Assembly (NCBI GenBank): GCA_964478075.1
Contig: CAYZGO010000004.1
Coordinates: forward strand, 60,492 to 124,491
Direction of reading: 5' to 3'
DNA: 64,000 nucleotides
From: an uncultured Anaerolineales bacterium
GTDB taxonomy: Bacteria; Chloroflexota; Anaerolineae; UBA2200
Shown: positions 24,197 through 49,724 of the stretch, one piece after another
Numbering within the stretch: position 1 is the first letter of the stretch
How the letters are laid out: each line of letters starts with the position of its first letter
Translations under genes and position numbers: made by a program
The notes under the pieces: model-generated
Database searches by the model: none
Seen by the model: only the letters and a program-made list of their open reading frames with translations
What the model was told of the DNA's origin: nothing

Positions 24197-26017
24197 CTAC
24201 TCACTGCTCACCACTCGCAGTTCCACGTCGTCCAGGTACACCGCCGTGATGCCATCGTGCCCATCGTTTTTCACACCGAAGCGCAGATTGACGCGCTGCC
24301 CTGCGTAGCCCAGCAGGTCGAAGGTGCGCAGGTTCCAGGCTTGATTGTGGTCTGTCCAGTAGGTGCAGTCTGACTCGCCACCGCCGCTAGTAGGGAGCAC
24401 GCAGAAGTAGATGAGATCCCCATCCACCTGCGCGCTCACTGGAAAGTAGTAGAAGGACAGCTCCGCCTGCGTCACCCCGCTGGGGATATCCACCGTCTGC
24501 TGCACAGAGGAGTAGCTCTCCACGTTGTAGCCAGTGTCAATCCCCAGGCGCATAGAGCGCGAGCCGCTGTGCGCACGGCCCACAGAGTAGCCTGCCGGGT
24601 AGGTGGTCCGCAAGATCTCCCACGCCTCCTCCCTCTCAAAGCTGTGATTGAGAATCAACTGTGTGTATTGTGGAGTGGACGTTGCAGTCGCCGTGGGCGT
24701 AGGCGATGGTCCAGTCGTAGGCGTCTCCGAGACTCCAGGCGTGAGGGAAGGGCTGGGTGAGGGCGTCGCACTTCCCGTGAGCGTGGGCGAAGGACTGGGC
24801 GATGGCAGTGCAGTCGCCGTAACCGTAGGGGAAGGGCTGGGCGAGGGCGTTGGACTCGGCGTGACCGTAGGCGAAGGGCTGGGCATGGGCGTCGGATAGC
24901 CTCGCAGCACGATGGGCAGAAAGGCTCTGGAAACCAGCTCTTCGAAAAGGCCATAGGACAATCCGGCCTGGTACACCGCCTCTGCCACCGTCCGCGGGTC
25001 AGGGGCAATACTGTAAGGTGTGTCGTCAAAGGCATACGCTCCCACAATCCAGACAGAGCCTTGAAAAACCAACGTGCGCTCATTCATGGGCAGCGTAGGC
25101 GAGCCAGGGTTCAGGCTGTGGCTGGCCTCGTAAGCATCAAAGCCGTGGAACAACAGTGCGTCCACGTCCCAACCACCAGCAACCAATGCATCGCGCTGCT
25201 GAATCAGCGTTGCGTATGCTTCCGCTGCCTGGCCAAAACGCTGTATCCAGGCCTCAGCGAAATGGCCTGCCGCGGCTGCATATTGCATCGTGTACAGAGG
25301 GTAGTGCACCACCACCTCCGAAGGCCAGCCAAGCGTGCGCGCAGCGTCCTCCAAGACCATCTGCTCAATGTCCTTGTGGGTGGCCGTAGGTGAAGGCACA
25401 TGCGTAGGAGTAGATGTCGGCGTGGCTGTCGCGGACGTAGGCGAAGGAGAAGCTGTAGGCCCACTGACGGTGATGGAATCACCGATCCACGTGGCCACGA
25501 TCGGTTCCGCGCAGTGGTTCGCCAAGACGCCACGGGTGAAGGTGATGCCACTGGTACCCGGTCTGAGCGCACGGAAAGTAATGCGTGCCAGCACGCCGCT
25601 TCCGCTCGCCGGCTCTCCAGGCGGAATGAGGGTCACTGTGTAAGTGATGGCGCCTGTCTCGTTCACAGCCTCATTCCGCGCCGGATAGAGCCACAACAAA
25701 TCCAGGAAGTCGCCTGGCTCAATCTGCACGCCAGTCCTGGCGGGGTGTGCGTCCTCTACCCACAGCACGTTGGGATCAAAAGAGACGGTCAAGTCCAACC
25801 CATAGAGATTCACGACGTCCCGCACCTGTATCTCGACGATGGCAGTCTCGCCCGCTGCCACCACGCTCGAAGCAGGCACGATGAGCACCTGCGTACTTTG
25901 CGTCTCTTGGCCATCCAAGATGCCAAGAGACTGTGTGCCCCGTGCATCCCCGGCGCCGAGCAGCAGCAAGGTAAGCGCCATAGCGACCAATGACACGAAC
26001 ACAGTCAGCCTGCGCAT
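24197..26017 (-). CDS. secreted cohesin-domain protein with Pro/Ser/Thr-rich linkers and a C-terminal beta-rich domain
   Basis: Signal peptide, then a cohesin-like domain ([27 protein letters not shown]...[10 protein letters not shown]), two PT/PS linkers and a C-terminal domain of about 150 aa. Confidence 0.7.
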
Positions 26018-26299
26018 GCTTTACCACCTTGGCATTTGTGGAGATCAAAACGAGGAACTAGGAAACATGCAGGACTGGAAGCCACGCTTCTCACACACGG
26101 ACGGGCGACAAACCATGTCCATCGCTTGCGCACAGCACACGCTAGCAGTCTGGCTTCTGAACAGTCACCCACGCACCTGAGGCGCACCAATACAAATGAC
26201 ACAAGTCGCCAGCCGGGCCCCTATCGCTCAACATCTCCGCACCGCCGTGAAGCAGGCGGTGCTGGGGTGCCGTCCTGCAGATTCCCCCCCCCAGGCTCC

Positions 26300-26332
26300 A
26301 GGTGACCGGCACCTCTAAGGTGCCGGTCACCT
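26300..26332. terminator. perfect 14-bp hairpin (AGGTGACCGGCACC tctaa GGTGCCGGTCACCT) downstream of the LysM-cohesin gene
   Basis: Lies 25 nt past the stop of the 26357-27442 gene on its 3' side. No U-tract, so it is a GC-hairpin type terminator or RNA-stability element. Confidence 0.4.
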
Positions 26333-26356
26333 GATATGTCCAGGCGTCAAATCAAC

Positions 26357-27442
26357 CTACGGAATCAGCAATAGCTGGCCAACGAAAATCAGGTTAGGGT
26401 TGGGCAGGTTGTTGAGCATGATGATTGACCACGGCGTCACGCGGAACATGGCCGCAATGGCCCACACCGTATCACCCCGCTGCACGATGTACGTGCGACT
26501 AGGCGGCGGCGCCGGCGGGCCGACAGGAATGATCAGTATCTGCCCGGCACGGATGTACCACGGATTGATGATCCGATTGACAGCAATGATGGCCTGCATG
26601 GGCACCTGGAACTTGAGCGAGATGCGATACAGATTGTCGCCAGGCTGTACCACGTAGGTTACCGGCCCTGGAGCCGGAGGGGGCAGCGTGGGGATAATCA
26701 GCACCTGACCCACCCATATAAAATTGGGATTGGCCAGGTTATTGGCCTGGATGATGGCCGCTGCTGAAACGCCAAAACGCCGCGCGATGCCATATACCGT
26801 GTCGCCCCACTGCACCACGTACGGGAACCCAACGCCTCCAGGTGGCACTGGCGTTGGAGATGGCGTCGGCGCCGGGGTGCCACTCGGCGTCGGCGTGGCC
26901 GTTGGAGCGCCTGCTGGCAACACGGTGATGGAGCCATCCATCAGCGTAGCGGAGATGGCCTGCGCCTGGTCACTGGACAGCGTCACAGTGTCGAACGTAA
27001 TCAGCGCATTGCCCTGAGCTTTGGCCTTGAAGGTGATGCTCGCCAGTACGCCAGTGCCGCTGACCGCCGGGTTCGGCGCCATCAGAACAAAGACGTACTG
27101 CACCTGCCCCGTTGTGTTGTCCACCGTGTTCTGAGCCAGGAAGCCTTGCGCTGGGTTGAGAAAGCCCCCAGGCGCAATCTGCACGCCGTTGGCGGGATTG
27201 GCGTCCGCATCCTGGGCCTCCAGCTTGGTCGCATCGAAAGTCAGGCGGATGTCCACCCCATACAGGTTGGTCACCGTGTCCACCTTGATCTCCACAGTGA
27301 CTGTTTGGTTCAGATCCGCTGACTGCGACGGTGGGTTCACCAGCACGATCGTGCCCTGTGCCAGAGCCGGAGACAGGGGCAGCACCAGGAGCATGATGAG
27401 CACCAGTGCCAATACGATACCTCGACTAATTCCTTTCTGCAT
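26357..27442 (-). CDS. secreted cohesin-domain protein with three C-terminal LysM peptidoglycan-binding repeats
   Basis: Signal peptide, cohesin-like domain (VEIKVDTVTNLYGVDIRLTFDATKL...GVLASITFKA), PT linker, then 3x LysM (YVVQWGDTVYGIARRFGVS..., YVVQPGDNLYRISLKFQVP..., YIVQRGDTVWAIAAMFRVT...). Start at the ATG (MQKGI) with an AGGAGGGA RBS. Confidence 0.75.
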   Translation of the reverse strand: MQKGISRGIVLALVLIMLLVLPLSPALAQGTIVLVNPPSQSADLNQTVTVEIKVDTVTNLYGVDIRLTFDATKLEAQDADANPANGVQIAPGGFLNPAQGFLAQNTVDNTTGQVQYVFVLMAPNPAVSGTGVLASITFKAKAQGNALITFDTVTLSSDQAQAISATLMDGSITVLPAGAPTATPTPSGTPAPTPSPTPVPPGGVGFPYVVQWGDTVYGIARRFGVSAAAIIQANNLANPNFIWVGQVLIIPTLPPPAPGPVTYVVQPGDNLYRISLKFQVPMQAIIAVNRIINPWYIRAGQILIIPVGPPAPPPSRTYIVQRGDTVWAIAAMFRVTPWSIIMLNNLPNPNLIFVGQLLLIP

Positions 27443-27584
27443 CTGCGTCCCTCCTATAGAGATATCCCACGTCAAGGATTAGAAACCACGTGCTGAATCA
27501 AAGTCTTGCCACAGGGATTGCTTTGCAATGGCAAGCCCCTGGGCCAGGCAGGAATACCCCGCCCTGCCTCCGCAAATACCCCGG

Positions 27585-30500
27585 CTAGCGATCACCGCCA
27601 GCCTTGCGTATCAACGGCAGGTAAACCCGGTACTTTGGAATGAGAATGGACCCATTCACCGTGATCACGTTGTCAAAGAGCTGTGCCTCCGGATCAGCCA
27701 GGTCTGCCAGGATAATGTCCAGCGCGCTGTAGCCTAGCGCCTTCGCCTGGAAGGTGATAGTGCATAATGTGCCACTGCCCACAGCAGGTGGTGTGTCCTG
27801 AAGCAGCCCTACTGCATATTCCAGCACGCCCATTTCGTTGTCCACCGTATTGGTGAACACCATGCCCAACTTCATGTCAGGCGGTCCCAAATCGGGAAAA
27901 CCACCCGGAGTGATCTGCACAAGGCGTGTATCGGGATCAGCATCCTCTACTTGCAAGATGCTGGGATCGAACGTCAGTTGAACATCTACGCCAAAGAGGT
28001 TGCTCACCTGCTCCAGTTGCAGTGTGACGGTCAGCAACTCTCCCACCTCGCCCACCTGGTGCTCAGGCGAAACACGCACGTACACCGGTCCCGCTGCACG
28101 TGCCCGGAGCGCGCTTGCCGCCTCCGCTTCCCACGGGGCGGGCCAGTCCTTGTGCAGTCCCCTGGCCACGATGACCAGATCCTGGACGTTCACCTCGCCA
28201 TCCTGGTTCAAGTCCACATAGAAATCGCTAGGTGGGACAGAGTGCAGCCTGCGGGCAACCCTGACCAGGTCAAACACGTCCACAACCTCATCGTCGTTAG
28301 TATCGCCGCCCCACATCTTTGCGTCGTCCATCACCGTCGTGACGCCACCTTCCACCGACACACCCACCCTCTGCATGGGTATGTAGCCCTTCAGCTCCGC
28401 CTTCAGGGTGTACGTGCCCTCGGGCATGTGCAAGAGGGCAAAATGGCCGTCGCTGTCGGTAGTCGTGGTGACAGCACCCGTGCCCACCGCTACTCCACTG
28501 TGATCCAGGCGGCCGTGAACTTCTATCGTGCCGATGATGGCTCCTGTGCCGCCAGGCGTGCACTGCCCTCCCAAGTAGGAGAAGCCGTACATTCGCAGGG
28601 TATTGTAGGTATCACCATTGGACTGCCACGTGTTGACGTACACATCGTCGCTGTAGTCAGGGTCCGCAGAGTCGTATAGGAACTTGACCCGCAGGCGCTG
28701 CTCCTCGCTGGCGGAGAAGAACGATCGGCCATCAGGCAACGTGGTATTGGGTGCCGGGATAGCGTCGTGCCAGCGGCTCAAATCACTCTGGCTGTAGTGA
28801 TGCACATTGCACCCATAGTAATAGGCGCGGCTCATCTCCGACTCCCAATTGCTGGTCAGCAGGTACTTTTGCCCGGTAGGCAACTCCAAGTCCGTATACT
28901 CATCAGGCACTGTGTGCCATTGCTCCGTCTGCCACAGCTCTGTTCCAATGGCATAATCTGGTTCGTAGTACAGCTCCTTCAACTCGCCAAAGTACTGCGG
29001 CTCGCTGTCCTCTTCCACGATGCGAATCTGGCACGGCACTACGCCTGGCAGTGGATCGCCACGGCAGTGTCCATCTCTGAAGCGATCGTTAGCAAAGACG
29101 AACTCTTCCGTGGTCCCATTAGTGGGCACATCCCTCTTCTCACGCAGCGCCTGGATGTCCTCCACGCAGGTATGCACAAAGTTGAAGGGCGGCATGACGG
29201 ATATGATGCTTGTATCCACACCAAGCACCTCATCGCCGGTGTAGCCCTCAAGCTTTTGCGAGTCAATGTCGTCAACAAAGTTCTTCTTGAACACCGGCGT
29301 GCGGATGGTGATGTACTTGAACTCGTACAGCTCATCGCCAGGGTTGAGCGTACTGGCTTCCACGGCGCGCACTGCCACTACATTGTACTCATGGCCATCC
29401 ACGTAGAAGCGCTTCAGATACCAGGGGTCACCGGGTTTCATATCGCGTCCGTTGCGGCCATCCCCCATTGCGGTATGCGTATGCCCCAGCGCACGGCCAA
29501 CCGTGAGCGAGGCCTGATCGGTGATGTGGTCCACGGACTTGACAAAGACAAACCAGGCACCGTCCACACGACCCAGGTTGTTGCTGCCTTTGGGAATACG
29601 CCGTGGCATCGCTCTGTTGGCAATGGCCATTTCCTTTTCTAGAAGCGACATCGTGCCGATGTAGTCAGGCTGCAACGAGTACTGCCCTGTTCCCGGATCA
29701 TAGTGCACGCCGCCGCCCGTGTCCCAGAACTTCAGTAGGGCCTGCCCAGGGGAGACGCTCAGCAGCGTGACCATGTGGTCCAGGAACTGTATGCTGTCCC
29801 CCTTATCCAAGGGGACATCTTCCAGGACAAAGACCACCATTTCGTTGCCATTCAGCGCGATCGAGTCCTCGTCGAGCAGATCAAGCTGTCCATCGCCGTC
29901 AAAGTCAGCCTGAATACGGGTGAGCGCGGCCAGCGACTGTTCGCTGTGCACCTGTACAATTTGAGGATTGCCGTCAAAGTTGGCATCAAAAGTCGTCAGG
30001 CCATAGCCAAAGCTGGGCAGCTCGATAGTAGGCAGTTCTCCATCAGAGCCCGGTGCGGGCAACTTCTTCTTCCCAGTGGCCATGGGGAAAGCGAACTGGC
30101 TTGAACCTGGCTGTCCATGTGCTGGCTGGTACTGGGTGTCCAGGTACATGTACGTGAACTCCTGCACCACTGCCGGGTAGGAGTAGACCGACGTTGGTGT
30201 AAAGGGCGGCGCGGAGTCCACCTCATTTATCCTGTGCACATACAGCGGCTCGTACCACATGCGCACGAAGACCTTTTCGCGAGCATTGCCCTCCCGAATG
30301 GTAATCCTGCGATACAACTCGACCAGATCGTCGCCGATGTTCTCCTCACTCATGTAGGCCGGATTGAGGGTCAACGAGTCCTTCGGTGGAGCCTCTGGCA
30401 ATTGCGGGTTAAAGGGCGCCCAGGGATCGGTGTAGGGCCATACTTCAACCGGATAGGTGATCGGAGCATCAATTGTGCCAAGATCTTCGATGTGCCTGTT

Positions 30501-32645
30501 GCCCGGCCCTTCATGGTCAAAGCCATAAACGCGCAAGCCCGTGTCACTCTTGTACTTCTTGCCGCCCTCAGCGGGATCGAACCAGAACTTGACCTGCGGT
30601 TTCCAACCGTCGGGCATGTCGTGCACGGCGTCATCGCGCAACCAGCACTGCGTGTCATAGTCCCAACTCAGGTTATAAGCCCAGGTGGTGTCAGTATGCA
30701 CATTCTGCGTCCACAGCACGTACTCGCTTTGCGGAGCCAGGAAAGAGCTGGTCAGCAGGTAAAGGTCAGTCTGGCCAGTCAGGTCGGGCAGCACAAACTC
30801 GGTGTACTTCCAGGGCAGAGTGTGCCACTGCTCTACGTACCAGAATTCCCCTGCCTCCGGGTGCTCACCGTACTTTTCCTTCAGTTCGCCGAGGAATTGA
30901 TCATTCTTGTCCTCTTCCACGTAGAAGAAGTGCATCTCCCGGACGTCCTCGTAGGTAGGAGGCGTAATGCCTGGCGGCCTGTAGGGTATGTAGTCACCAC
31001 TCTTCTGCTGGATAGGTGGCACAGGTCCCACTAGTGAACCATAGTAGTGCACATCCTCCTCTTTGCAGGTGAAAGCCTCGATGGCCTGCACATCCAAGAT
31101 AACATAGTGCTCATAGTTGTAAGGTGGCATGACGGAGAGATAGTCTTCCGCTCCATAGGCCTGCAGGCGCACCGAGTGCTGCTGGATCAAATACCCGTCA
31201 CCAGGATCCTCGTACTCACTGGCCTTGGGAATGGGCGTTCGAATGGTGATGAACTTGAACTTGCTGAGATCTCGCGGCGGCGGCCAGAACTCTGTGTCAA
31301 TTAGCCCATCCCCGTCCTGGTCAATCGAGCACGTTACGCCGCCGTCACCCAACCGAATATCCGCGCCGTCCTCTGTCTTGATGGCGACGACGTTGTATTC
31401 GTGACCATCCACGTAAAAGCGCTTCAGGAACCACGGATCACCCGGGCACCGGTCTTGCTGGTTGGGCGCGTATTCCATGCCGCTCCAGGCAGCACCAAGT
31501 GCGCGTCCCACCATCAAAAATGCGCTTGGCTCGTCGGGATCAATGTGGTCTAGGTACGCGAAGAAAGGACCTGTGGGAAACTGGCACATGTTGGTGCCTG
31601 GCCCGCCATTGGCCACGGCCACGATTTGCTTAACAGGGCCATCGCTCCCCGCAAGGAGCATGTCGCCGACAGAGATAGTCTTAGCGCCCAGGCTATGTGG
31701 TGTCAAGTCGCCAGTATACCAGACTTTGAGAGACACGCTGTTGCTGTCACCGTACACTTGTTGGAGGACGATCCTATGATCCAGAAACTGCAGGGCCCCG
31801 TCCAGGCCCAGCTCCATGGTATCCAAGCGAAGAATGGCCAGTTCGTTGCCATTCAGTTGCGCACCATCGAGGTCCAGCGGGTCAATATAGCCATTCCCGT
31901 CAAAGTCGGCAGCGATAAGCGTTTTCTCGAACAGCGTCAATTCGCTCTCTACGTGGACGATGTCTGGAACGTCATCAAAGTTGCCGTCCAGGCTGGTCAG
32001 GCCGTAGCCGTAGGGATCAGATAGATCGCCCTGCCGCATACCCACAGGGAAGACAAAACTCGTCTCGCCTACCCGCCCAGCCACGGGGCGCGGCTCATCG
32101 GCCAGCGGATAGGGCTGCAGCAGCATGTAAGTGAACTCTTCCATCACCGCTGGGTACCACTCATCGTGCAGGGTATCCGTGTACGGCACCTGCGCCTGGG
32201 GATGGATGTCCAGCTCACCACTGGCGTTGAGATCCTTGTCCCAGTGCCACGGCTGGTACCACATGCGGAAGCACACCTTTTCGGACGCGTCAACGCCGCC
32301 TGCCTTGATCCGGTGGTAGAGGTCATGATAGTAGTTCTCGTCGAAGGTCCTGTTATAGTGCATCCACAGCGGGTTCCAGGTTACGGAGTCTTTAGGGGCT
32401 TGTTCGAGCTGGGGGTTAAAGATGGGCTCAGAGGCAGTGTATGGCGGATCTTCAGGGCACAACCCAGTGCAAGGATCCACAGCATCTGGGTCCCCCGCTT
32501 GGCCCACGATCCGAGCAGAAATGCGCGCCTCTGCCACCGATCCGGCCAAAGCAAAGGTGTCTGCCTCTGTCGCCAATGCAACTACTGCACCCAACAACAG
32601 TGTGGTGACAATCAACGCAACTATGACTCTGAGTGCCCTGGGCAT
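27585..32645 (-). CDS. giant secreted multidomain protein (about 1,686 aa) carrying two tandem large repeats of about 500 aa, a CarbopepD-regulatory-like beta-sandwich, a dockerin-like double EF-hand and a C-terminal cohesin-like domain
   Basis: Signal peptide MPRALRVIVALIVTTLLLGAVVALA. Duplicated block GDPW[FY]LKRFYVDGHEYNVVA / ADFDG[ND]G..D.LD. Dockerin-like VVDVFDLVRVARRLH...DLNQDGEVNVQDLVIVARGL. Cohesin-like tail VGELLTVTLQLEQVSNLFGVDVQLTFDPSILQV...GTLCTITFQAKA. Start ATG at 32645 with a GGGAGGAG RBS. Confidence 0.75.
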   Translation of the reverse strand: MPRALRVIVALIVTTLLLGAVVALATEADTFALAGSVAEARISARIVGQAGDPDAVDPCTGLCPEDPPYTASEPIFNPQLEQAPKDSVTWNPLWMHYNRTFDENYYHDLYHRIKAGGVDASEKVCFRMWYQPWHWDKDLNASGELDIHPQAQVPYTDTLHDEWYPAVMEEFTYMLLQPYPLADEPRPVAGRVGETSFVFPVGMRQGDLSDPYGYGLTSLDGNFDDVPDIVHVESELTLFEKTLIAADFDGNGYIDPLDLDGAQLNGNELAILRLDTMELGLDGALQFLDHRIVLQQVYGDSNSVSLKVWYTGDLTPHSLGAKTISVGDMLLAGSDGPVKQIVAVANGGPGTNMCQFPTGPFFAYLDHIDPDEPSAFLMVGRALGAAWSGMEYAPNQQDRCPGDPWFLKRFYVDGHEYNVVAIKTEDGADIRLGDGGVTCSIDQDGDGLIDTEFWPPPRDLSKFKFITIRTPIPKASEYEDPGDGYLIQQHSVRLQAYGAEDYLSVMPPYNYEHYVILDVQAIEAFTCKEEDVHYYGSLVGPVPPIQQKSGDYIPYRPPGITPPTYEDVREMHFFYVEEDKNDQFLGELKEKYGEHPEAGEFWYVEQWHTLPWKYTEFVLPDLTGQTDLYLLTSSFLAPQSEYVLWTQNVHTDTTWAYNLSWDYDTQCWLRDDAVHDMPDGWKPQVKFWFDPAEGGKKYKSDTGLRVYGFDHEGPGNRHIEDLGTIDAPITYPVEVWPYTDPWAPFNPQLPEAPPKDSLTLNPAYMSEENIGDDLVELYRRITIREGNAREKVFVRMWYEPLYVHRINEVDSAPPFTPTSVYSYPAVVQEFTYMYLDTQYQPAHGQPGSSQFAFPMATGKKKLPAPGSDGELPTIELPSFGYGLTTFDANFDGNPQIVQVHSEQSLAALTRIQADFDGDGQLDLLDEDSIALNGNEMVVFVLEDVPLDKGDSIQFLDHMVTLLSVSPGQALLKFWDTGGGVHYDPGTGQYSLQPDYIGTMSLLEKEMAIANRAMPRRIPKGSNNLGRVDGAWFVFVKSVDHITDQASLTVGRALGHTHTAMGDGRNGRDMKPGDPWYLKRFYVDGHEYNVVAVRAVEASTLNPGDELYEFKYITIRTPVFKKNFVDDIDSQKLEGYTGDEVLGVDTSIISVMPPFNFVHTCVEDIQALREKRDVPTNGTTEEFVFANDRFRDGHCRGDPLPGVVPCQIRIVEEDSEPQYFGELKELYYEPDYAIGTELWQTEQWHTVPDEYTDLELPTGQKYLLTSNWESEMSRAYYYGCNVHHYSQSDLSRWHDAIPAPNTTLPDGRSFFSASEEQRLRVKFLYDSADPDYSDDVYVNTWQSNGDTYNTLRMYGFSYLGGQCTPGGTGAIIGTIEVHGRLDHSGVAVGTGAVTTTTDSDGHFALLHMPEGTYTLKAELKGYIPMQRVGVSVEGGVTTVMDDAKMWGGDTNDDEVVDVFDLVRVARRLHSVPPSDFYVDLNQDGEVNVQDLVIVARGLHKDWPAPWEAEAASALRARAAGPVYVRVSPEHQVGEVGELLTVTLQLEQVSNLFGVDVQLTFDPSILQVEDADPDTRLVQITPGGFPDLGPPDMKLGMVFTNTVDNEMGVLEYAVGLLQDTPPAVGSGTLCTITFQAKALGYSALDIILADLADPEAQLFDNVITVNGSILIPKYRVYLPLIRKAGGDR

Positions 32646-32851
32646 TTCATCTCCTCCCTTGTGCAAAGCGACGTGATACGTAGCACTGGCTCACAGGTTT
32701 ACTAACATTATCTTACCACGAAAGTGCCAGATTGTCAACGTAAGCTAATCTGAGACTTACCTGCAAGTTTACCAAGGATTCGGTCACCGGCGGTGGCAGA
32801 CACGACGGGGTTTCAACCTAAGCCGGCGCTGTAGGTCAGATTGGGAGCAAA

Positions 32852-38236: not shown

Positions 38237-38543
38237 GTCGGAATGTCATTCCGACGTACTATGCTGCGTCGGTCAGAGCTCGCTCCGTAAGTCGGAATGT
38301 CATTCCGACGTAGCACGCTCCGTCCGTCGGAGTTCGCCCCGTTGGTCGGAATGTCATTCCGACATAGCACGCTCCGTCCGTCGCAGCTCGCTCCGTTGGT
38401 CAGAATGTCATTCCGACTTAGCACCCTCCGTCCGTCGGAGTTCGCTCCGTTGGTCGGAATGACATTCCGACATAGCACGCTCCGTCCGTCGGAGTTCGCC
38501 CCGTTGGTCGGAATGTCATTCCGACTTACTACGACGTACTATG
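38237..38543. repeat. tandem array of a palindromic repeat with 54 bp periodicity, six copies of the 19-bp core, last unit partial (GTCGGAATGTCATTCCGAC core plus 35-bp near-identical linker); BIME/REP-array-like, adjacent to the second RAYT gene
   Basis: Six near-perfect 19-bp palindromes at 54-bp periodicity. The linkers are about 85% identical to each other, so they are not CRISPR spacers. All three forward frames stay open only because the unit is 18 codons. Confidence 0.8.
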
Positions 38544-39171
38544 TTGTGATGTATGTCCAGGGCCACGTTTCCCAATCAGAGGTCAGGCCCGCTTTTACCG
38601 GATTGTTGACTATGTACTGTACGATGCGGCCTAGTTCGTTCGCGTCCCGCACCACGTGATCATAACTTTCCGCCTGCCAGAACGTACCTTGCCGACCCAA
38701 GACCTTGTTTGCCTGTCGCGCCGTATGTCGTTTGAGGGATTGGAGGATCCGATGGAGGGCATAATACGTGCCGTCTTGACGTTGCAGCGGTGTACAGACC
38801 AAATGCACGTGATTGGGCATAATGCAAAATGCCAGTAGATCATATACCCGCCCGTGACGATAATGCAGGGCCTGAACAACCACCGTGGCCACTCGTGGGT
38901 CTGCTAGCCAGTGTGGGCCATACTCTGAAAAGTCTACGGCTGCGTCCCATAGCCCAAACGCGCGTCGCTCATCCAGATAGGCTTGCTTCTGGCGCTCTTG
39001 CGTGTCGCCGATGTGTGATAGCGCGCGTTCCTCTTGGTCGCGTTTTTCCTGCAACGCGGCGAGTACTGCACGCGGCAACGAGCCAGCAAGTCGGAAAGTG
39101 ACGAACAATGTTGCTCCGCCTGGCTGCCAATGCGGTAAATGGCGACGATAGAATACGCGATGGTCTGTCAT
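38539..39171 (-). CDS. REP-associated tyrosine transposase (RAYT, IS200-like Y1 HUH transposase), second and distinct family
   Basis: YRRHLPHWQPGGATLFVTFRL N-terminal RAYT motif, HUH motif CIMPNHVHLV, then GTFWQAESYDHVVRD and a catalytic Tyr region (VQYIVNNPVKAGL). Start at the ATG (MTDHR); the ORF track's TTG is 15 nt further up. Confidence 0.75.
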   Translation of the reverse strand: MTDHRVFYRRHLPHWQPGGATLFVTFRLAGSLPRAVLAALQEKRDQEERALSHIGDTQERQKQAYLDERRAFGLWDAAVDFSEYGPHWLADPRVATVVVQALHYRHGRVYDLLAFCIMPNHVHLVCTPLQRQDGTYYALHRILQSLKRHTARQANKVLGRQGTFWQAESYDHVVRDANELGRIVQYIVNNPVKAGLTSDWETWPWTYITT

Positions 39172-39195
39172 AGGCCGGATTGACAATCCGGCCTA
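39171..39195. repeat. perfect 12-bp palindrome TAGGCCGGATTG a CAATCCGGCCTA overlapping the RAYT start
   Basis: Seen directly at the 5' boundary of the second RAYT gene. Possible terminal hairpin or operator. Confidence 0.5.
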
Positions 39196-40076: not shown

Positions 40077-41207
40077 ATGATGCGTTGTGACGTCCTGGTA
40101 ACCGGCGGTGCGGGCTTTATCGGCTCACATCTGACCGATGCCCTGATCGCCGCCGGCCACAAAGTGCGCGTCTACGACAGTCTCGAAGCTCAGGTTCACG
40201 GTGAAGGCGCGCGTGCACCCTCTTACCTGAACCCTGAGGCAGAGTTCGTGGTCGCCAAGCTGGGAGATCGCCAGGCATTGACCAAAGCCCTGTCTGGTGT
40301 CAAAGTCGTGTTCCACCTCGCTGCCGCAGTCGGTGTGGGTCAGTCCATGTATCAGATTCAGCATTATGTAGAGTACAACACCCTGGGAGGCGCAATCCTG
40401 CTCGACATCCTGGCCACGGAGCGGCACCGCGTGCGAAAGTTGGTAGTAGCCTCCTCAATGTCAATCTATGGTGAGGGAGCTTATCATTGCACGCAATGTG
40501 GCAAAGTATACCCACCCCCACGCCCGCTGAGACAACTGAAGGCACGCGATTGGGAAATGCATTGCCCGACTTGTGGTCGCGTCGCAACGCCCCTCCCCAC
40601 CGCAGAAGACAAGGCACTCCAGCCCACATCCATCTATGCCATAACCAAACGTGACCATGAGGAGATGTTCATCTGCGTGGGCCGGGCGTACCGGCTGCCC
40701 GTGGTAGCTCTGCGCTTTTTCAACGTCTACGGTCCCCGGCAGGCGCTGTCCAATCCCTACACCGGAGTTGCAGCAATCTTCTCCGCACGCTTGCTCAATG
40801 ACCGGCCACCCGTCGTTTACGAGGACGGATTGCAGAGCCGTGACTTTGTGCACGTCAGCGATGCGGTACGTGCTGCCATCCTGGCCATGGAAAGCAAAGA
40901 GGCGGACTACGAGCCAATCAATGTGGGCACAGGGCATGCCACCACCATCCTCGACGTGGCACGGCTGCTGGCCGAGAAACTGCACAAGCAAGACCTCACA
41001 CCACAGATCAGAGGGCAGTTCCGCCAGGGCGACATCCGCCACTGCATCGCGGATACCACCAAGATTCGGGAGCGCCTGGGCTACGCGCCCCGTGTCTCCT
41101 ACGAAGATGGCATTGATGATCTCGTCACCTGGGTCAGCAGCCAGATAGCAGAGGATCGTTTCAGTGACGTGGAGTCGGCACTGAGCGCACGGAAACTCGT
41201 GGTATAG
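40077..41207 (+). CDS. NAD-dependent epimerase/dehydratase (extended SDR) with an inserted C4 zinc-ribbon
   Basis: GGAGFIGSHL Rossmann motif and YxxxK (YAITK) catalytic dyad. An insert of about 40 aa, CTQCGKVYPPP...CPTCGRV, sits between the conserved segments. Confidence 0.8.
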   Translation: MMRCDVLVTGGAGFIGSHLTDALIAAGHKVRVYDSLEAQVHGEGARAPSYLNPEAEFVVAKLGDRQALTKALSGVKVVFHLAAAVGVGQSMYQIQHYVEYNTLGGAILLDILATERHRVRKLVVASSMSIYGEGAYHCTQCGKVYPPPRPLRQLKARDWEMHCPTCGRVATPLPTAEDKALQPTSIYAITKRDHEEMFICVGRAYRLPVVALRFFNVYGPRQALSNPYTGVAAIFSARLLNDRPPVVYEDGLQSRDFVHVSDAVRAAILAMESKEADYEPINVGTGHATTILDVARLLAEKLHKQDLTPQIRGQFRQGDIRHCIADTTKIRERLGYAPRVSYEDGIDDLVTWVSSQIAEDRFSDVESALSARKLVV

Positions 41208-41234
41208 GCAATCCCGGGGAGGACATGGCATACA

Positions 41235-42266
41235 ATGTCGATGCCGCGCATACTGGTCACGGGCGCAGCTGGATTCATGGGCAGTCACCTCGTTGATGCC
41301 CTGGTCAACGAATACAAAGTTCACGGTGTGGATGATTTGTCTGGAGGCTTCTGGCGCAATGTTAACCCTAAGAGCCACTTCACCAGGCTGGATCTGCGCC
41401 AGAAAGAAGCAACTGAACAGTACGTTGCCAGCGTGCGGCCTGAGGTTCTCTTCCACCTTGCTGCTGATGCTACCGAGGGCCGCAGCCAATTCACACCGAT
41501 TACCTGTACCGACTGCAATCTCATGGCTTACCTGCACACCCTGGTCCCGGCAATCCGCAATGGCCTGCACAAGGTCGTGTTGGCCAGTTCAATGAGTGTC
41601 TATGGTGCGCAAACACCACCCTTCGACGAAAACATGTCCATGGAGCCAGAGGACGTGTACGGCGTGTCTAAAACAGCGATGGAACAGATAACCCACATCC
41701 TGAGCGAGGTACATGGGTTTGCCTACACAATTATCCGACCGCACAATGTCTACGGGCCACGCCAGAATATCGCCGATCCGTACCGTAATGTTATCGGCAT
41801 CTTTATTAACTGTCTGCTGAACGACAAGAGCTTTTATATCTATAGCGACGGCGAACAGCGCCGTGCCTTCACCTACATAGACGACTTTACGCCCTACATG
41901 CTGAGAGCCGCTCTTGATGACAGGTGCGATGGCGAAGTGATCAACATTGGGCCGCGTGAGGAGCTGACCATCAACTCGCTCGCGGATTTGGTGCTGTCGC
42001 TTTTCTACGAAGGACAGGACATCCCTGACCACGTTCGTCCTGTCCACCTGCCCCCACGCCCTAAGGAAGTGCGTGATGCCTACTGCACTGATGAGAAGGC
42101 TCGACGCTTGCTGGGTTACCACGTGACCGTGAAACTGGAAGACGGCATCCGGCGCATGATCGCCTGGGCGAAGGAACTCGGGGCACAAGAACCCCGGTAC
42201 ATGGAAAACGGATTGGAAATCACCACATCCGCCACACCAGCTACGTGGACACAGAGGCTGATATAG
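41235..42266 (+). CDS. NAD-dependent epimerase/dehydratase (dTDP-glucose 4,6-dehydratase / UDP-glucuronate decarboxylase-like SDR)
   Basis: GAAGFMGSHL, YGVSK catalytic motif, 343 aa. Confidence 0.8.
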   Translation: MSMPRILVTGAAGFMGSHLVDALVNEYKVHGVDDLSGGFWRNVNPKSHFTRLDLRQKEATEQYVASVRPEVLFHLAADATEGRSQFTPITCTDCNLMAYLHTLVPAIRNGLHKVVLASSMSVYGAQTPPFDENMSMEPEDVYGVSKTAMEQITHILSEVHGFAYTIIRPHNVYGPRQNIADPYRNVIGIFINCLLNDKSFYIYSDGEQRRAFTYIDDFTPYMLRAALDDRCDGEVINIGPREELTINSLADLVLSLFYEGQDIPDHVRPVHLPPRPKEVRDAYCTDEKARRLLGYHVTVKLEDGIRRMIAWAKELGAQEPRYMENGLEITTSATPATWTQRLI

Positions 42267-42282
42267 CAATAGAGCATATGCC

Positions 42283-43539
42283 ATGAAAGTTGTAGTGGCC
42301 ATTTTCGAGCAATTGGTGCCAATCTCGGGCGGCGGCACGCCGCGCACCTCTCACATGGTGCACGCGCTGGTCAGGCGGGGGCATCAAGTTTACGTCGCTG
42401 CCGCCTTCGGGGTACATCCCGCAGAAGCATCCAGAGAGCTTGGGTGTGCAGGCATGCTTTCGCTTCCGCACGTCAGCCGACTGGATCACCGCAAGATGCT
42501 CAAGTACCTGTTCGTCTATCCGTGGAACATGCTGTGCCTTGCTCTCTACATCTGGCGCATACAGCCAGACGTTGTCGTGTCACATAACTCGGTTGCTGGC
42601 TTCGCGGCCCTGCTAGGCAAAACCCTGCACCGTCAGACCGTGACCGTGCTTGACCTGACCGACCTGCTGTTCGAGTACCTCGAAAGCTATCGCGCCCGCT
42701 GGGCATCGCCCGTACTATTGCTTGGACGAGCGCTGGAGCGGCACGCCATCCGCAAGTCGGATCATGTTGTGACGATCAGCAAAGCAATGCGCAGCATCCT
42801 CGTGCAAGACTATGAAGTGAGCGAGTCAAGAGTGGATGTCGTGCACGACGGCGTTGACTGCAACGTGTTCCACCCACAAGAGGCAAGCGCACTGCGACGT
42901 CAGGTCTCTCCCTGGGCGCGGCACATCTGCATCCTGCACGGCGTGATAGATCCACAGGATGGCCCTGAACTGCTCGTGGAGGCGGCTCCGCTGGTCCTAT
43001 CGCGATTCCCAAAGACGGCCTTCTGGTGGGTTGGCGATGGCGCTGCTGTGCCAAGGCTCAAGGCTCGCGCTGAACAATTGGATCTGAGCGACAGATTCTT
43101 CTTCTCCGGCTGGGTCAGACAGCAGGAGGTGACTAACTACATCAATGCCAGTGACCTGGGACTGGTAGTGCTGCCTGACATTCTGTCAGCGCGGGGGCGC
43201 GTCACCCTCAAGGAGTTCGAGTACTGGGCGTGCGGGAAAGCAGCGGTGCTGCCGCGCCTACCGGCGCTTCAGGAGATCATTCCAGAGGGCGAGGCATCAC
43301 TGTTCTACACGGCGGGCAACGCTGGCGACCTGGCCGAGAAGATCTGCGTTCTGCTGGCCGACGATGAGCGCAGAAAGGCTATGGGCCGACGCGGCCGGCA
43401 GATGGTGGCTGACCGCTTCGAATGGCGTGTGCTGACGGATGAACTGGCCCGCCTCTGCGAGAGCTACGCTACGCCCCAAGTCGCCAAGCACGACGCCGAT
43501 CCTGAATCGGGAGGTATCCATGAAAGTGCTAGTCACTAA
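42283..43539 (+). CDS. glycosyltransferase family 1 (GT4-type)
   Basis: GT-B architecture with a C-terminal EX7E-like region (KEFEYWACGKA...). 418 aa. Confidence 0.75.
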   Translation: MKVVVAIFEQLVPISGGGTPRTSHMVHALVRRGHQVYVAAAFGVHPAEASRELGCAGMLSLPHVSRLDHRKMLKYLFVYPWNMLCLALYIWRIQPDVVVSHNSVAGFAALLGKTLHRQTVTVLDLTDLLFEYLESYRARWASPVLLLGRALERHAIRKSDHVVTISKAMRSILVQDYEVSESRVDVVHDGVDCNVFHPQEASALRRQVSPWARHICILHGVIDPQDGPELLVEAAPLVLSRFPKTAFWWVGDGAAVPRLKARAEQLDLSDRFFFSGWVRQQEVTNYINASDLGLVVLPDILSARGRVTLKEFEYWACGKAAVLPRLPALQEIIPEGEASLFYTAGNAGDLAEKICVLLADDERRKAMGRRGRQMVADRFEWRVLTDELARLCESYATPQVAKHDADPESGGIHESASH

Positions 43540-44968
43540 CCCGCCTTGGCCTGGTGAAGGGTACGGGGCACGTTCGGACGTGCGCTGGCCTCACAAGCGG
43601 AAAGACAAGTACCTTGAGTACCCGATTTACCTGTCCTACACCGTGGCCGTGCTGGAAGAGGCGGGATTCGACGTTGCCTTCGTGGACGCAATCATGGAAG
43701 AACTCGACATCCCTGCCTTTGTGCAGAGAGTCAAGGGAATAAACCCCCGCCTGTTGGTAATGGAATGCTCCACGCCCTCGATACGGTACGACCTGCAGTC
43801 TGCAGCGGCTGTCAAGAGCGCCTTGCCCGACACCAGGATTGCGCTGGTGGGCTCACATGTCACCTTTTTCAGCAAAGACGTCCTGGCTGAGAACCCCGCC
43901 GTAGACGCCATCTGCCGGGGCGAGTTTGAGATCACCGTGCGCGAACTGGCACGTGCCATTGCGGAGGGGCGCGACTGGAGCACAGTAGAAGGGCTATCCT
44001 ATCGAGCTGGTGACAAAGTCGCAGCCAATCCCGACCGGCCGTTGATCGAGGACGTCGACAGTTTGCCGTTCCCTGCGCGGCACATAGTGCGCGACGACGG
44101 ATACCGAGCCGCCATCTACTCCGGCAAAAAGTGCACGGGGATGGTAAGTTCGCGTGGCTGTCCATATCACTGCACCTTCTGTGTATGGCCCAGCACTCTC
44201 TACGGTCACAGATTCCGTGCCCGCAGCGCCAACAACGTCGTTGATGAAATTGAGCAAGCGGCAACGCGCTACGGAATAGATGAGATCTACTTTGACGATG
44301 ACACGTTCACCATTGACAGAAAGAGGGTTTTGGAGATCTGCCGATTGATCAAGGAACGCGGCCTCCAGGTGTCCTGGATTTGCCAGGCACGAGTGGACAC
44401 TGTGGATCGCGAAATGCTGCTGGCTATGAAGGAGGCTGGGTGCCACTACATCCTGTTTGGTGTAGAGTCTGGCTCGCCGGAAATGCTCAAGATCATGAAG
44501 AAGCAAATCACGCTGGCCAAGGCGCGGGAGGCTTTTCGCCTGTGCAGTGAGTTGGGCATCAAGGCCCAGGCATTCTTCCTCTTCGGCATTCCTGGCGAGA
44601 CCCAGGAGACGATCAGACAAACGATCGAGTTTGCAAAGGAACTAGGCGCCTCCAGCACACAGTTCGCAGTGGCTATCCCCCAACCAGGCAGTGCACTTTA
44701 TCAGCAGTGTGTACAGAACAGCTGGTTGATCTTCAATGATTGGGAGGATTTCGCTTCCTGTAACGCTCTCATCGAGACACCGCAGCTATCACGAAAGGAA
44801 GCGGAGGAAGCACGGATACGGGCCTACCGTGAGTATTACTTCCGACCAACGTTTGTCTTGCGCGAAGCGCTGCGCATTCGTCACCCGCGCGACGTGAAAC
44901 GACTGCTGCGGGGAGCAATGTCGGTGCTGACCCGCATATCTTTCTTCCAGTCTGCACGCAGCTCATGA
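43520..44968 (+). CDS. B12-binding-domain radical SAM protein (class B radical SAM)
   Basis: N-terminal cobalamin-binding-like Rossmann region (VLVTNPPW...), then radical-SAM CxxxCxxC (CPYHCTFC) and a TIM-barrel region. Start ATG 43520 with a GGGAGGT RBS, overlapping the upstream gene by 20 nt. Confidence 0.8.
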   Translation: MKVLVTNPPWPGEGYGARSDVRWPHKRKDKYLEYPIYLSYTVAVLEEAGFDVAFVDAIMEELDIPAFVQRVKGINPRLLVMECSTPSIRYDLQSAAAVKSALPDTRIALVGSHVTFFSKDVLAENPAVDAICRGEFEITVRELARAIAEGRDWSTVEGLSYRAGDKVAANPDRPLIEDVDSLPFPARHIVRDDGYRAAIYSGKKCTGMVSSRGCPYHCTFCVWPSTLYGHRFRARSANNVVDEIEQAATRYGIDEIYFDDDTFTIDRKRVLEICRLIKERGLQVSWICQARVDTVDREMLLAMKEAGCHYILFGVESGSPEMLKIMKKQITLAKAREAFRLCSELGIKAQAFFLFGIPGETQETIRQTIEFAKELGASSTQFAVAIPQPGSALYQQCVQNSWLIFNDWEDFASCNALIETPQLSRKEAEEARIRAYREYYFRPTFVLREALRIRHPRDVKRLLRGAMSVLTRISFFQSARSS

Positions 44969-46251
44969 AGATCCTGTTGCTGGCTCCTTTCGATCTCTTC
45001 CCCCCGGTGCACGGGGGAAGCAGCATCGTTTACAACTTAATAAAGCACGCTGCCGCACGGCACAAAGTGAGCGCGCTCATCTCGCACCTTTACTCCCTCG
45101 GGAGACAGGTGGACCCCTCGTGCTCGAGCCCTCCAGGGCGAAGCTTCGAGGCCGAAGGCTTGAGCCCCCGTCGACCAGGGACGAACGGCCCCTTAGGGCG
45201 AAGCCTGGCTGCAGACAACGTCAACGTACATTACTGCCGGCGCTCGCCCTTCGACCGCTTGCGAGTGCTATCTTTCCTCGTCAATCCTTACTACTATCGC
45301 GCAGCCGAGCGCATATGCCGCCAGAGTCAACCCGATGTGATCCACTGCGAGACCCTGTGGCCTATCCTGGCAGGATGGCACTTGCGGCGCAAGTACCACG
45401 TGCCATTGCTTTGGGTCGAAGAGAACATCGAAGCACTCAAATTCGCCACTCTGGGGCGGCCAAGAATCATCACTTCACTGGTAGCAATAGTTGAGCGCTT
45501 TGCCTGCCAGCACGCCGATCACATCATCACGCTCACCGAGATTGACCAGGGGCATCTCAGAGAGCTGTATCACGTGCAAGCCGAGCGCGTGACCGTAATC
45601 ACGCCCAGTCCGGATCTGTCAGACTTTCAGTGGGACAAAACGGCCCGGTCCGCAACACGCAAACGCTATGGCTTGTCCCAGGAGGATGTGCTGCTGACCT
45701 TCGTGGGCAATATGAAGTACGAGCCCAACCAGCACGCTGTGCGTCGCATTGCGGACTGCATCTATCCTGCAGTGATGGACAGATATCCCAGCGCCAGATT
45801 TGTGGTCATCGGACAGGGAGCGGAGCACCTCACTGACTGCCGCCGCGACAACATCATCTTCGCTGGCTACGTAAGCCGCCAAGACCTGGTGGCACACCTG
45901 TCAGCTACCGACATCTTTCTGGTGCCTGTCGAAACCGGCTCTGGCATAAGAGTCAAGATTCTGGAGGCGGCAGCGTGCGGACGGGCAGTCGTGGCTACAA
46001 GAAAGGCTACGGAGGGCCTGGAGTTCTTCAACGACGACGAAATCGTGCGTGTAGAGGCAGTTGATCAGCGCTTCGTTGCCGCCGTTTTACGCCTGATCGA
46101 GGACGGGGCATTGCGCACCGCCATAGGCGCACGTGTCCAACTACGCACGAGGCGCGAGTTAGGATGGGACAAGACGTTAGCAGAGTATGAACAAGCGTGT
46201 GCGAAAGCCATCGCTGCCGCGCGAACACAAGGACGCCACGAGCCGGCATGA
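44965..46251 (+). CDS. glycosyltransferase family 1 (GT4-type) with a low-complexity insertion
   Basis: GT-B GT1 pattern with ETGSGIRVKILEAAACGRAVVAT near the C-terminus. Start overlaps the previous stop (ATGA). Confidence 0.75.
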   Translation: MKILLLAPFDLFPPVHGGSSIVYNLIKHAAARHKVSALISHLYSLGRQVDPSCSSPPGRSFEAEGLSPRRPGTNGPLGRSLAADNVNVHYCRRSPFDRLRVLSFLVNPYYYRAAERICRQSQPDVIHCETLWPILAGWHLRRKYHVPLLWVEENIEALKFATLGRPRIITSLVAIVERFACQHADHIITLTEIDQGHLRELYHVQAERVTVITPSPDLSDFQWDKTARSATRKRYGLSQEDVLLTFVGNMKYEPNQHAVRRIADCIYPAVMDRYPSARFVVIGQGAEHLTDCRRDNIIFAGYVSRQDLVAHLSATDIFLVPVETGSGIRVKILEAAACGRAVVATRKATEGLEFFNDDEIVRVEAVDQRFVAAVLRLIEDGALRTAIGARVQLRTRRELGWDKTLAEYEQACAKAIAAARTQGRHEPA

Positions 46252-47342
46252 ATAGACTGGCGATCGCTCTCAAGAACACGCCACTTCTCTTGCGCGGCGT
46301 CTATGAATACAACATCGCCAGCCGTTTTGGCCCGTTGCCGCCGCGTGAATGGATGTTTCCGGTTACCTACCGCTGTGATGCGCGGTGCGTGATGTGCAAT
46401 ATCTGGCAAAGCAGCAAGGCTGGTGAGCTGAGCATAGCGCAATGGAAGCACATACTCGATGATCGTCTGTTTGCTGGCATCGAGAGCATAAACCTGACTG
46501 GTGGGGAGCCCACCCTGCGTCGTGATCTGCCACAACTGGTGCAATTGCTGATAGACAAGCTGCCAGCCTTGCGGCGGTTGACGCTCACGACCAATGCTTT
46601 GAACAGCAGCCACGTCATCAATCACTGTGAGCAACTCGGTGAGCTCTGCGCAGGTCGTGGCATCAGCTACTTCGTCGGCGTCTCGCTGGACGCCATAGGC
46701 CCTCTGCACGACGAGATGCGGGGCATACCAGATGCCTTCGAAAAGGTGGAGTGCACGCTCGAAAGACTGCAGCGTCTCCGCGAACAAGGCAGGCTGCGGG
46801 TCGGTATCAACTGCACGCTCACCAGCCACAACCTGCACGACGCCAAGAACGTCCGCCAGTGGTGCGCTGAACGGGATTTGGAGGTCAACTTTATTATCGC
46901 TTCGTTCGCCGAAAGCTACTACGCAAACATCGAAGCCGCGAAGGACCTGGAAATCACAGCACAACAGCGCAGGGCGCTGATCGCTTTTCTGACCGAGCTG
47001 GCTGCACAGAAATCACTGGGGAACCTTGCCGCTTACTTTTACGCTGACGCAGCACGCATGATAGAAAGAGGAACGGCACGTACGACCCCTTGTGTATTCC
47101 AGAAAGATGCCTTCATCCTAGATGCTCGGGGAGACCTGCAGTACTGTATGTACAGCCGCAAGCTCGGCAACGTGCGCAAAGAGAGCGCAGCAGCTCTGTA
47201 CTATGCACCGCAGAACCTGGCCCACCGCCAAGAGATCATTGCGAGCAAATGCCAGAATTGCACAATCACCTGCTTCCTGGAACTCTGCCTGGCCAAGGAT
47301 GCGCTCAAGTACTTGAGATTCCTGCTCGGAAGGCGAACATGA
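46248..47342 (+). CDS. radical SAM protein with C-terminal Cys-rich (SPASM/twitch-like) region
   Basis: CDARCVMC (CxxxCxxC) near the N-terminus and a C-terminal CQNCTITC cluster. ATGA start/stop overlap with the upstream gene. Confidence 0.7.
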
Positions 47343-49626: not shown

Positions 49627-49724
49627 AGGGTTGTTATGAAGTACCGCTTCGAGGACTGTTTTTCAGACGAGGATTGCAGCACAGTTCGGCAAGGTGAGGA
49701 GAATCGCATCAATAAGGACAGACT

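Follow-up and report, generated by a model that had tools for sequence, protein, structure and literature searches.

A conserved three-gene locus of Anaerolineae-type Chloroflexota with a giant double-block surface protein and a candidate LysM-anchored cohesin partner

The stretch analysed here, called the window throughout, is a 64-kb piece of the genome of an uncultured Anaerolineales bacterium (contig CAYZGO010000004.1, positions 60,492 to 124,491), and it carries three neighbouring minus-strand genes for secreted cohesin proteins in which an earlier note on the sequence had seen a possible cellulosome-like scaffold. The trio comprises a giant surface protein (protein C), identical to a database protein of 1686 amino acids (aa) (P0001), a smaller protein with one cohesin and three LysM repeats (protein B), and a third secreted protein (protein A) (Table 1). 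All three begin with a basic residue and a hydrophobic stretch, which reads as signal-peptide-like in the translations, and each has one cohesin that scores above the Pfam gathering score for PF00963 (24.1 bits). The open reading frames (ORFs), the cohesin scores and the hydrophobic N-termini thus bear out the description of three minus-strand signal-peptide proteins with a cohesin. The cohesins of A and B are 37-42% identical to the giant's cohesin or to each other. The cohesin motif V.I.V..V.NLYG, which had been read as shared, is present in all three proteins, but the giant has NLFG where A and B have NLYG.

The other domain calls likewise agree with the earlier note. LysM (PF01476) scores 156.8 bits over three repeats of protein B, above the gathering score, as had been claimed for the middle protein, and many LysM-containing NCBIfam models match the same region. 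Dockerin_1 (PF00404, cutoff 22.9 bits) is called in the giant at aa 1454-1503, so that hidden Markov models (HMMs) place both cohesin and dockerin above threshold. The carboxypeptidase-regulatory-like domain assigned to the giant is matched by CarboxypepD_reg, with a score just below the cutoff of 32.3 bits. No glycoside hydrolase, polysaccharide lyase, carbohydrate esterase, carbohydrate-binding module or other Pfam enzyme domain was called in proteins A, B and C, in agreement with the earlier note, which had recognised no glycoside hydrolase. A cellulolytic role of the trio was rejected because none of the three proteins has a carbohydrate-active enzyme (CAZyme) domain.

Table 1. Features of the three-gene locus; positions are those of the window.
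Feature	Position	Strand	Basis or remark
Giant surface protein gene (protein C)	27585..32645	(-)	1686 aa from ATG 'MPRAL'; ORF reaches 32666 from upstream TTG
Signal-peptide-like N-terminus of giant (MPRALRVIVALIVTTLLLGAVVALA|TEA)	32571..32645	(-)	Read from translation
Core block A, aa ~75-720, almost all beta	30507..32444	(-)	Self-alignment; AlphaFold2 pLDDT 86.9, pTM 0.88
Core block B, aa ~744-1366, paralogous copy of block A	28569..30437	(-)	34% identity
Ig-like domain (CarboxypepD_reg-like), aa ~1373-1447, predicted X module of XDoc	28326..28550	(-)	Pfam 32.1 bits; Foldseek XDoc matches
Dockerin, aa ~1452-1503, two Ca-binding loops	28158..28313	(-)	PF00404 34.0 bits; conserved loops; PDB dockerin sequence hits
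Cohesin of giant, aa ~1528-1677	27636..28085	(-)	PF00963 28.4 bits; cassette model; Foldseek cohesin matches
YLP-box YRVYLPLIRK, putative ultrashort C-terminal sorting motif	27603..27632	(-)	NF050076, NF053834; 5 residues before stop
Cohesin-LysM x3 protein gene (protein B)	26357..27442	(-)	361 aa, likely ATG 27442; ORF 26357-27475
Cohesin of protein B	26921-27334	(-)	PF00963 49.1 bits
LysM repeats of protein B	26690-26821, 26522-26662, 26360-26494	(-)	PF01476
Third secreted protein gene (protein A)	24197..26017	(-)	606 aa
Cohesin of protein A	25463-25879	(-)	PF00963 29.9 bits
Lineage-specific middle domain of protein A	~24923-25381	(-)	
Internal YLP-like box of protein A	24893-24925	(-)	
MAM-like jelly-roll domain of protein A	24200-24673	(-)	
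Sigma-70-like promoter match	32710..32738	(-)	TTGACA-17-TAAGAT with TG; ~65 nt upstream of giant ATG; consensus scan, weak evidence

The C-terminal part of the giant is a cassette of an immunoglobulin-like (Ig-like) domain, a dockerin and the cohesin, in that order. The dockerin is built of two repeats, DTNDDEVVDVFD and DLNQDGEVNVQD, each an EF-hand-like Ca-binding loop followed by a helix, and its loops, GGDTNDDEVVDVFD and DLNQDGEVNVQD, fit the pattern D-x-N-x-D-(x3)-N/D-x-x-D. Over 94 distinct family members, the conservation of the Ca-ligand positions lies in the range 0.63-1.00, with D5 at 0.95, D16 at 1.00, D35 at 1.00 and D46 at 0.99. The paired Ca-binding repeats that the earlier note had placed N-terminal to the giant's cohesin are therefore real, with both loops intact. 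Median spacings in the family are 8 aa from the Ig-like domain to the dockerin, 32 aa from the dockerin to the cohesin and 18 aa from the end of the cohesin to the C-terminus, and the linker between dockerin and cohesin holds a nearly invariant Trp.

An AlphaFold2 model of the cassette (aa 1360-1693, 334 aa) reached a predicted local distance difference test (pLDDT) of 91.9 and a predicted template modelling score (pTM) of 0.85, with the two dockerin helices at residues 105-113 and 135-143 of the fragment. A pTM of this size is high for three domains, and the model therefore sets them in a fixed mutual arrangement. Compared by Foldseek with the Protein Data Bank (PDB), it returned 87 hits at E<=1e-3, among which cohesins dominate, type II cohesins first. 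The giant's cohesin, the only one of the three that was modelled, is predicted to have the nine-stranded beta-sandwich of solved cohesins and matches type I, type II and archaeal cohesins at E 1.5e-10 to 1e-7 with a TMt (TM-score normalised to target length) of 0.67-0.79; the archaeal cohesin 2xdh is among the best structural matches of the cassette (TMt 0.79). Whole X-module-dockerin (XDoc) chains, namely 4u3s_B, 4wi0_B and 5k39_B, match the cassette as well (TMt 0.67-0.73, 23% identity, 152-155 columns). Because these chains match in their entirety, the Ig-like domain and the dockerin resemble a type II XDoc, and we predict from the model that together they form a type II-like XDoc unit. A family profile searched against PDB sequences gave weak dockerin hits, and its matches to the XDoc chains 2b59_B and 5k39_B reach beyond the dockerin on its upstream side.

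Behind the cohesin, the giant ends in a short tail with a YLP-box. Its last 15 residues match two NCBIfam models, NF050076 and NF053834 ('ultrashort_CTERM'), both described there as a YLP-box putative sorting motif. The matches lie above cutoff when the tail is scored alone: the isolated 40 aa reach 17.3 bits with NF050076 (cutoff 15) and 16.6 bits with NF053834 (cutoff 10), while the box in the full-length giant scores only 11.5 bits. Most homologues of the giant, including those that have no cohesin, end in (V/I/L)YLP(L/V/I)(V/I/L)x(K/R) followed by 2-6 residues. A literature search found no publication on the YLP-box or YLP motif.

The larger part of the giant is a core of two blocks. A self-comparison aligns aa ~75-720 with aa ~744-1366 at 34% identity (E=5e-86), so the tandem duplication described in the earlier note holds, but the blocks measure ~650 and ~625 aa rather than the ~500 aa it had given. 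The motif PGDPW[FY]LKRFYVDGHEYNVVA occurs at aa 408-428 and 1078-1098, and across the family each block has a nearly invariant PGDPW(F/Y)LKRF(Y/F)VDGHEYN together with a DFDG(N/D)G…D…D motif that resembles a Ca-binding loop. Block A of the window's giant has its loop-like DFDGNG at aa 253-259 and PGDPWFLKRFYVDGHEYNVVA at aa 408-428. The same invariant motifs are kept in blocks A and B, and invariant E, D, H, K and R residues stand out in the core, for example in VDGHEYN and NYEH. Structure prediction, which the earlier note had proposed for the duplicated blocks, was run on block A and yielded a confident all-beta model (Table 1). No relative of this model was found among solved structures, no Pfam domain or PDB sequence matched the core blocks, and when the sequences of solved structures were searched with a family profile, the dockerin was the only part of the giant family to be matched. 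In the head of the giant, a ~640-aa module, almost all-beta and without a solved structural relative, was duplicated in tandem long ago.

A word-indexed protein search with the giant returned 140 hits at E<=1e-5, and the following counts refer to the 120 of them that were listed. Every homologue with a named source comes from Chloroflexota (Anaerolineae, Caldilineae or Ardenticatenales), and none has a Pfam domain that covers the core. All 120 match block A in two tandem regions, apart from a few truncated ones, with an identity to block A of 35-66% in the first copy and 28-40% in the second. The ordered Ig-like–dockerin–cohesin cassette, detected with custom HMMs from the window's domains, terminates 68 of the 120. 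An exhaustive HMMER search of 1.84 billion cluster representatives with a profile of blocks A and B found only 265 proteins at E<=1e-3. Judged by these sequence searches, the double-block family is a small one, restricted to its lineage. When one genome per species was scanned, 138 relatives were obtained; the best 80 of these all come from Chloroflexota metagenome-assembled genomes except one from an unclassified bin and one on a contig binned as Sphingomonadaceae. The latter (JBDHSK010000031.1) is a 6.9-kb contig that is probably mis-binned.

Several genomes have multiple giant paralogues, some of them in tandem. Two double-block giants often stand side by side, as at eight of the related loci, where one frequently has a terminal MAM-like domain and the other a YLP-box or the cassette. 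Such tandem paralogues with differing C-termini hint at heteromeric assemblies. A different arrangement is seen at two loci (L030, 7701-18006, and L039, 1-9877), where a double-block giant without dockerin or cohesin ends in 'SFLPIKVK…'. Behind it come a protein of 770-810 aa that has three LysM repeats and, after that, one with three cohesins.

Protein B belongs to a large and uniform family, with 650 hits at E<=1e-10, ~360 aa each, many of them 65-80% identical, for which the source annotation offers only 'LysM repeat protein'. Of the three cohesins, that of protein B is conserved best across genomes, with a mean identity of 49% (up to 79%) compared with 37% for the giant's and 33% for that of protein A. 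We propose that the cohesin-LysM protein is the peptidoglycan anchor of the trio. Protein A combines its cohesin and a lineage-specific middle domain with an internal YLP-like box, a Pro/Ser/Thr linker and a C-terminal jelly-roll. The last of these resembles the InhA-like MAM domain (PF20773), with a score of 22.9 bits against a cutoff of 26.9 and a match that covers only aa 547-602; 'MAM-like' is thus used here for resemblance, not membership. In the protein A orthologues of the window and three related loci, the internal box takes the form xFLPxxLRG[YF]P and lies before the Pro/Thr-rich linker and C-terminal domain. When these segments from the window and from one of the three loci were scored alone, neither NCBIfam YLP-box model matched. 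If the internal motif is nonetheless related to the YLP-box, the YLP-box is not strictly a C-terminal signal. The earlier note had not recognised the XDoc character of the cassette, the tail with its YLP-box or the anchor-like MAM domain in protein A.

Five lines of evidence tie the three genes to each other. First, the trio keeps its position. In GCA_040960625.1 and GCA_002327925.1, it occupies the interval between DUF3786 and hisS. In GCA_014360825.1, DUF3786 is followed by the giant and the cohesin-LysM gene side by side, with the third gene ~3.6 kb further on and no hisS seen in the giant locus; the giants of these three syntenic genomes are 45-51% identical to that of the window. Second, among related loci with complete flanks, a cohesin-LysM gene is found within 3 kb of 11 of the 26 dockerin-bearing giants and of 0 of the 10 dockerin-less ones (Fisher p=0.016, uncorrected for shared ancestry), where some 'dockerin-less' entries are split genes. 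Third, domains that sit on separate cohesin proteins in the window are fused elsewhere to the core itself. LysM is joined directly to the double-block core in three homologues, and the MAM-like jelly-roll of protein A is joined to it in many paralogues (custom HMM, E 1e-50 to 1e-74). LysM and the MAM-like domain therefore either share a chain with the core or, at this locus, are carried by separate cohesin proteins, as expected if cohesin-dockerin docking replaces a covalent link. Fourth, there is a minimal pair (locus L082, 4500-6587), in which a 338-aa secreted cohesin–Ig-like–dockerin protein is encoded directly upstream of a cohesin-LysM gene, with no giant nearby. Fifth, the cohesin of protein B is, as given above, better conserved between genomes than the other two.

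The kept position of the trio, the dockerin-limited association, the fusions and the minimal pair all support docking indirectly. From these, together with the domain calls, the conserved Ca-binding loops, the cassette model and its matches, the cassette shared by many homologues, the well-conserved cohesin of protein B, the lack of enzyme domain calls, the motifs kept in both blocks and the housekeeping setting, we judge it more probable than any other reading that the trio encodes a cell-wall-anchored surface complex of Anaerolineae-type Chloroflexota, in which the XDoc of the giant docks on the cohesin of the LysM protein, although the balance is only a little better than even. After Sec export, the LysM repeats of protein B would bind peptidoglycan and present its cohesin. 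The XDoc of the giant would then bind this cohesin in a Ca2+-dependent manner, and the double-block head would be held at the wall. Protein A may use its MAM-like domain to act as an anchor or adaptor, either alternative or additional. The cohesin of the giant itself could take up the XDoc of another copy or paralogue and so extend a chain, or it could be occupied by the giant's own XDoc. Head-to-tail polymerisation of the giant, which the earlier note had already raised, is speculative.

Several observations weigh against this picture of docking on protein B. In the remaining 15 of the 26 dockerin-bearing relatives, no cohesin-LysM gene lies next to the giant, and the association test takes no account of phylogeny. 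Three cohesins stand against a single detectable dockerin in 64 kb: a scan of the window for paired dockerin-type Ca-loop motifs found only the giant's own and detected no other dockerin-bearing cargo. The high pTM of the cassette model suggests that the dockerin may already be occupied by the cohesin of its own chain, and the YLP-box could give the giant a separate route of sorting or anchoring. The high conservation of the core and a small chance that the head is a novel catalytic fold also count here, and both are taken up below. A word-indexed search with the cassette alone returned 6 hits that did not include the giant family itself, and is uninformative on other cassette-bearing cargo.

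The most serious of the alternatives builds on two of these points. The XDoc would be permanently bound to the cohesin of the same chain and form a rigid stalk, the giant would be sorted or anchored through its YLP-box, and proteins A and B would bind dockerin proteins encoded elsewhere. The fixed arrangement implied for the three-domain, 334-aa chain is what such a stalk predicts, as is the constant company of dockerin and cohesin at conserved spacing with a nearly invariant Trp between them. The isolated tail passes the NCBIfam cutoffs, and a similar motif ends most homologues with or without a cohesin. The very large size of the cohesin-LysM family and the many dockerin-bearing giants without such a neighbour fit a protein B that has other partners. 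This explanation, however, leaves three observations unaccounted for, namely the presence of cohesin-LysM genes beside dockerin-bearing members only, the minimal pair of a Coh-X-Doc and a Coh-LysM protein, and the paralogues with LysM fused to the core. We regard it as unlikely.

What the head itself does is a separate question. No enzyme family or fold match was found and the same motifs are kept in both halves; motifs that resemble Ca-binding loops are present, and paralogues are multiple and sometimes in tandem. For these reasons we tentatively lean towards a structural, Ca2+-stabilised envelope or adhesion protein, S-layer-like (surface-layer-like) or sheath-like, rather than an enzyme, while giving this role somewhat less than an even chance; of all the steps of the proposed picture it is the weakest. 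The core is 50-66% identical across genera, far above what is typical of S-layer proteins, and this unusually high conservation counts against a classical S-layer. The giant also shows no significant homology (NF052345 cutoff, 1400 bits) to the described S-layer families that were compared, which were those of the surface-layer homology (SLH) type, the tandem-DUF1608 proteins of Methanosarcina and the anammox S-layer glycoprotein Kustd1514. The literature on the envelope of Litorilinea aerophila describes a grappling-hook protein, which is a DUF11 repeat protein unrelated to the giant family. A bolder extension, doubtful at present, is that the double-block giants build an outer proteinaceous layer or sheath of filamentous Anaerolineae, held on peptidoglycan by a LysM-cohesin base and continued from giant to giant through XDoc-cohesin daisy chains. 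If so, an S-layer-like envelope made of a fold without a solved relative would here be anchored and polymerised in a new way, and the YLP-box would be a novel, ultrashort signal for sorting.

A true enzyme complex is less probable still. In that case, the blocks would be a new enzyme that degrades or modifies a polymer (polysaccharide, peptidoglycan or protein), displayed through cohesin and dockerin as a minimal, non-cellulolytic analogue of a cellulosome. The unusual conservation of the core and its invariant E, D, H, K and R residues (VDGHEYN, NYEH) would suit a catalytic fold, and cohesin-dockerin systems classically display enzymes. A cohesin/dockerin cluster elsewhere (locus L083, 226-9410, GCA_964469005.1), with cohesin-only proteins and a 779-aa dockerin protein, includes one cohesin protein with faint to weak GH43-, GH130- and GH32-like hits to glycoside hydrolase (GH) families; this cluster may be a separate cohesin-dockerin system with enzyme cargo. 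For the giant, however, no Pfam or NCBIfam enzyme family matches, the presence of the same invariant residues in both halves is better explained by pseudo-symmetric structural repeats than by one active site, and no transporter or catabolic genes are linked to its locus or to the syntenic loci. We therefore give a catalytic head, and with it the enzyme complex, only a slim chance. The modest Pfam scores of two of the cohesins (28-30 bits), and the reportedly wide and mostly untested occurrence of non-cellulosomal modules of this kind, might suggest that there is no specific docking at all and that the cohesin-, dockerin- and Ig-like modules are structural spacers or Ca2+-binding stabilisers in unrelated neighbouring secreted proteins, but this is very improbable given gene neighbourhood and order that are conserved although the giants are only 45-51% identical, a cohesin-LysM association specific to dockerin-bearing relatives, intact canonical Ca-binding loops, a predicted structure that matches real XDoc and cohesin structures, and a domain-fusion pattern consistent with docking.

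The nearest known counterpart of docking on protein B is the cell-surface attachment of the cellulosome. In Clostridium (Acetivibrio) thermocellum, the XDoc of the scaffoldin CipA binds the cohesin of SdbA (type II), OlpB and Orf2p, which are anchored through SLH modules. The window resembles this type II anchoring in three respects: the giant has an Ig-like X module directly before a two-loop dockerin, a small protein with one cohesin and a wall-binding module is encoded nearby as the candidate partner, and the best matches of the predicted cassette are XDoc chains and type II cohesins. The differences are equally plain. The wall-binding module is LysM x3 here and SLH there, the host is one of the Chloroflexota rather than the Bacillota, and docking here is a prediction. 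Unlike CipA, the giant is not a multi-cohesin scaffoldin but has a new double-block head and one cohesin after its XDoc, in the order X-Doc-Coh where CipA has Coh-X-Doc. Within the 64-kb window, the giant is the only protein in which a dockerin was detected. Of the features that define a cellulosome, the trio thus has the anchor made of a cohesin and a wall-binding module, with LysM in place of SLH; it has one cohesin per protein in place of a multi-cohesin scaffoldin, and no dockerin-bearing CAZymes were found in the three proteins or the 64 kb. The trio would work like the anchoring half of a cellulosome and is not a cellulosome by definition. The term 'cellulosome-like scaffold' used in the earlier note was overstated, since there is no multi-cohesin scaffoldin and the only paired dockerin Ca-loop motif of the window is the giant's.

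Outside cellulosomes, cohesin- and dockerin-like modules are reportedly widespread and mostly untested. Non-cellulosomal cohesin and dockerin modules are known in many bacteria and archaea, among them the dockerin/cohesin proteins of anaerobic methanotrophic (ANME) archaea (PMC9012536). Such modules, like the Archaeoglobus fulgidus cohesin 2xdh, belong to organisms in which they have no cellulolytic role, are often both found in one protein and are presumed to act in extracellular assembly; the trio likewise has both modules in its giant. It differs in having a fixed cassette on one protein family and a syntenic LysM-cohesin partner, where earlier surveys of non-cellulosomal modules reportedly describe scattered, unpaired ones. 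One study reported that no cohesin or dockerin was found in five curated Anaerolineae genomes and in Anaerolinea thermophila UNI-1 (PMC4877987), and the cohesin-dockerin system is therefore not universal but lineage-specific within the Anaerolineae. A further parallel is the engineered display of cohesins on lactic acid bacteria (PMC2949795), where, as proposed here, a wall-held cohesin recruits dockerin-tagged cargo; that system is synthetic, and the one at this locus would be natural, widespread and LysM-anchored.

New in this work are the conserved occurrence of an XDoc-cohesin cassette together with a cohesin-LysM anchor, an uncharacterised double-block family without a solved structural relative, and the link of that family to the YLP-box. 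Sludge, sediments and digesters are rich in Anaerolineae and related Chloroflexota, whose envelope and surface proteins are poorly known. The locus offers a concrete, testable picture of how a large surface protein may be displayed in these bacteria, by cellulosome-type docking on a LysM anchor. If the docking is true, it would be a natural counterpart of engineered cohesin display and a clear case of cohesin-dockerin use outside polysaccharide degradation, and it would open a way to study the YLP-box, a putative sorting signal according to the NCBI models.

The trio sits in a chromosomal housekeeping setting, flanked by hisS, tRNA-His, RNase III and urocanase in one direction and by NUDIX and DUF3786 in the other. 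A mobile-element or phage origin was considered and dismissed, since several genomes have the locus in synteny between housekeeping genes. A sigma-70-like promoter match precedes the giant (Table 1), and a consensus scan found no terminator-like hairpin in either intergenic gap of the trio; these scans are weak evidence with which co-transcription would be compatible. About 6 kb upstream of the trio lies a fragment of an IS200-like Y1 transposase (PF01797, 27.7 bits; 38539-39186). The plus strand at 40077-50666 holds a cell-envelope glycan cluster with two NAD-dependent sugar epimerase/dehydratases, glycosyltransferases (GT) of families GT4 and GT2, a Wzx/MurJ-like flippase and two radical-SAM proteins, one of which bears a B12-binding domain. 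Further along, at 54862-57883, a 512-aa ORF without a Pfam match adjoins a CDP-glycerol glycerophosphotransferase-like gene of the teichoic-acid type, and this is the stretch of lowest GC content in the window (0.53 vs ~0.58).

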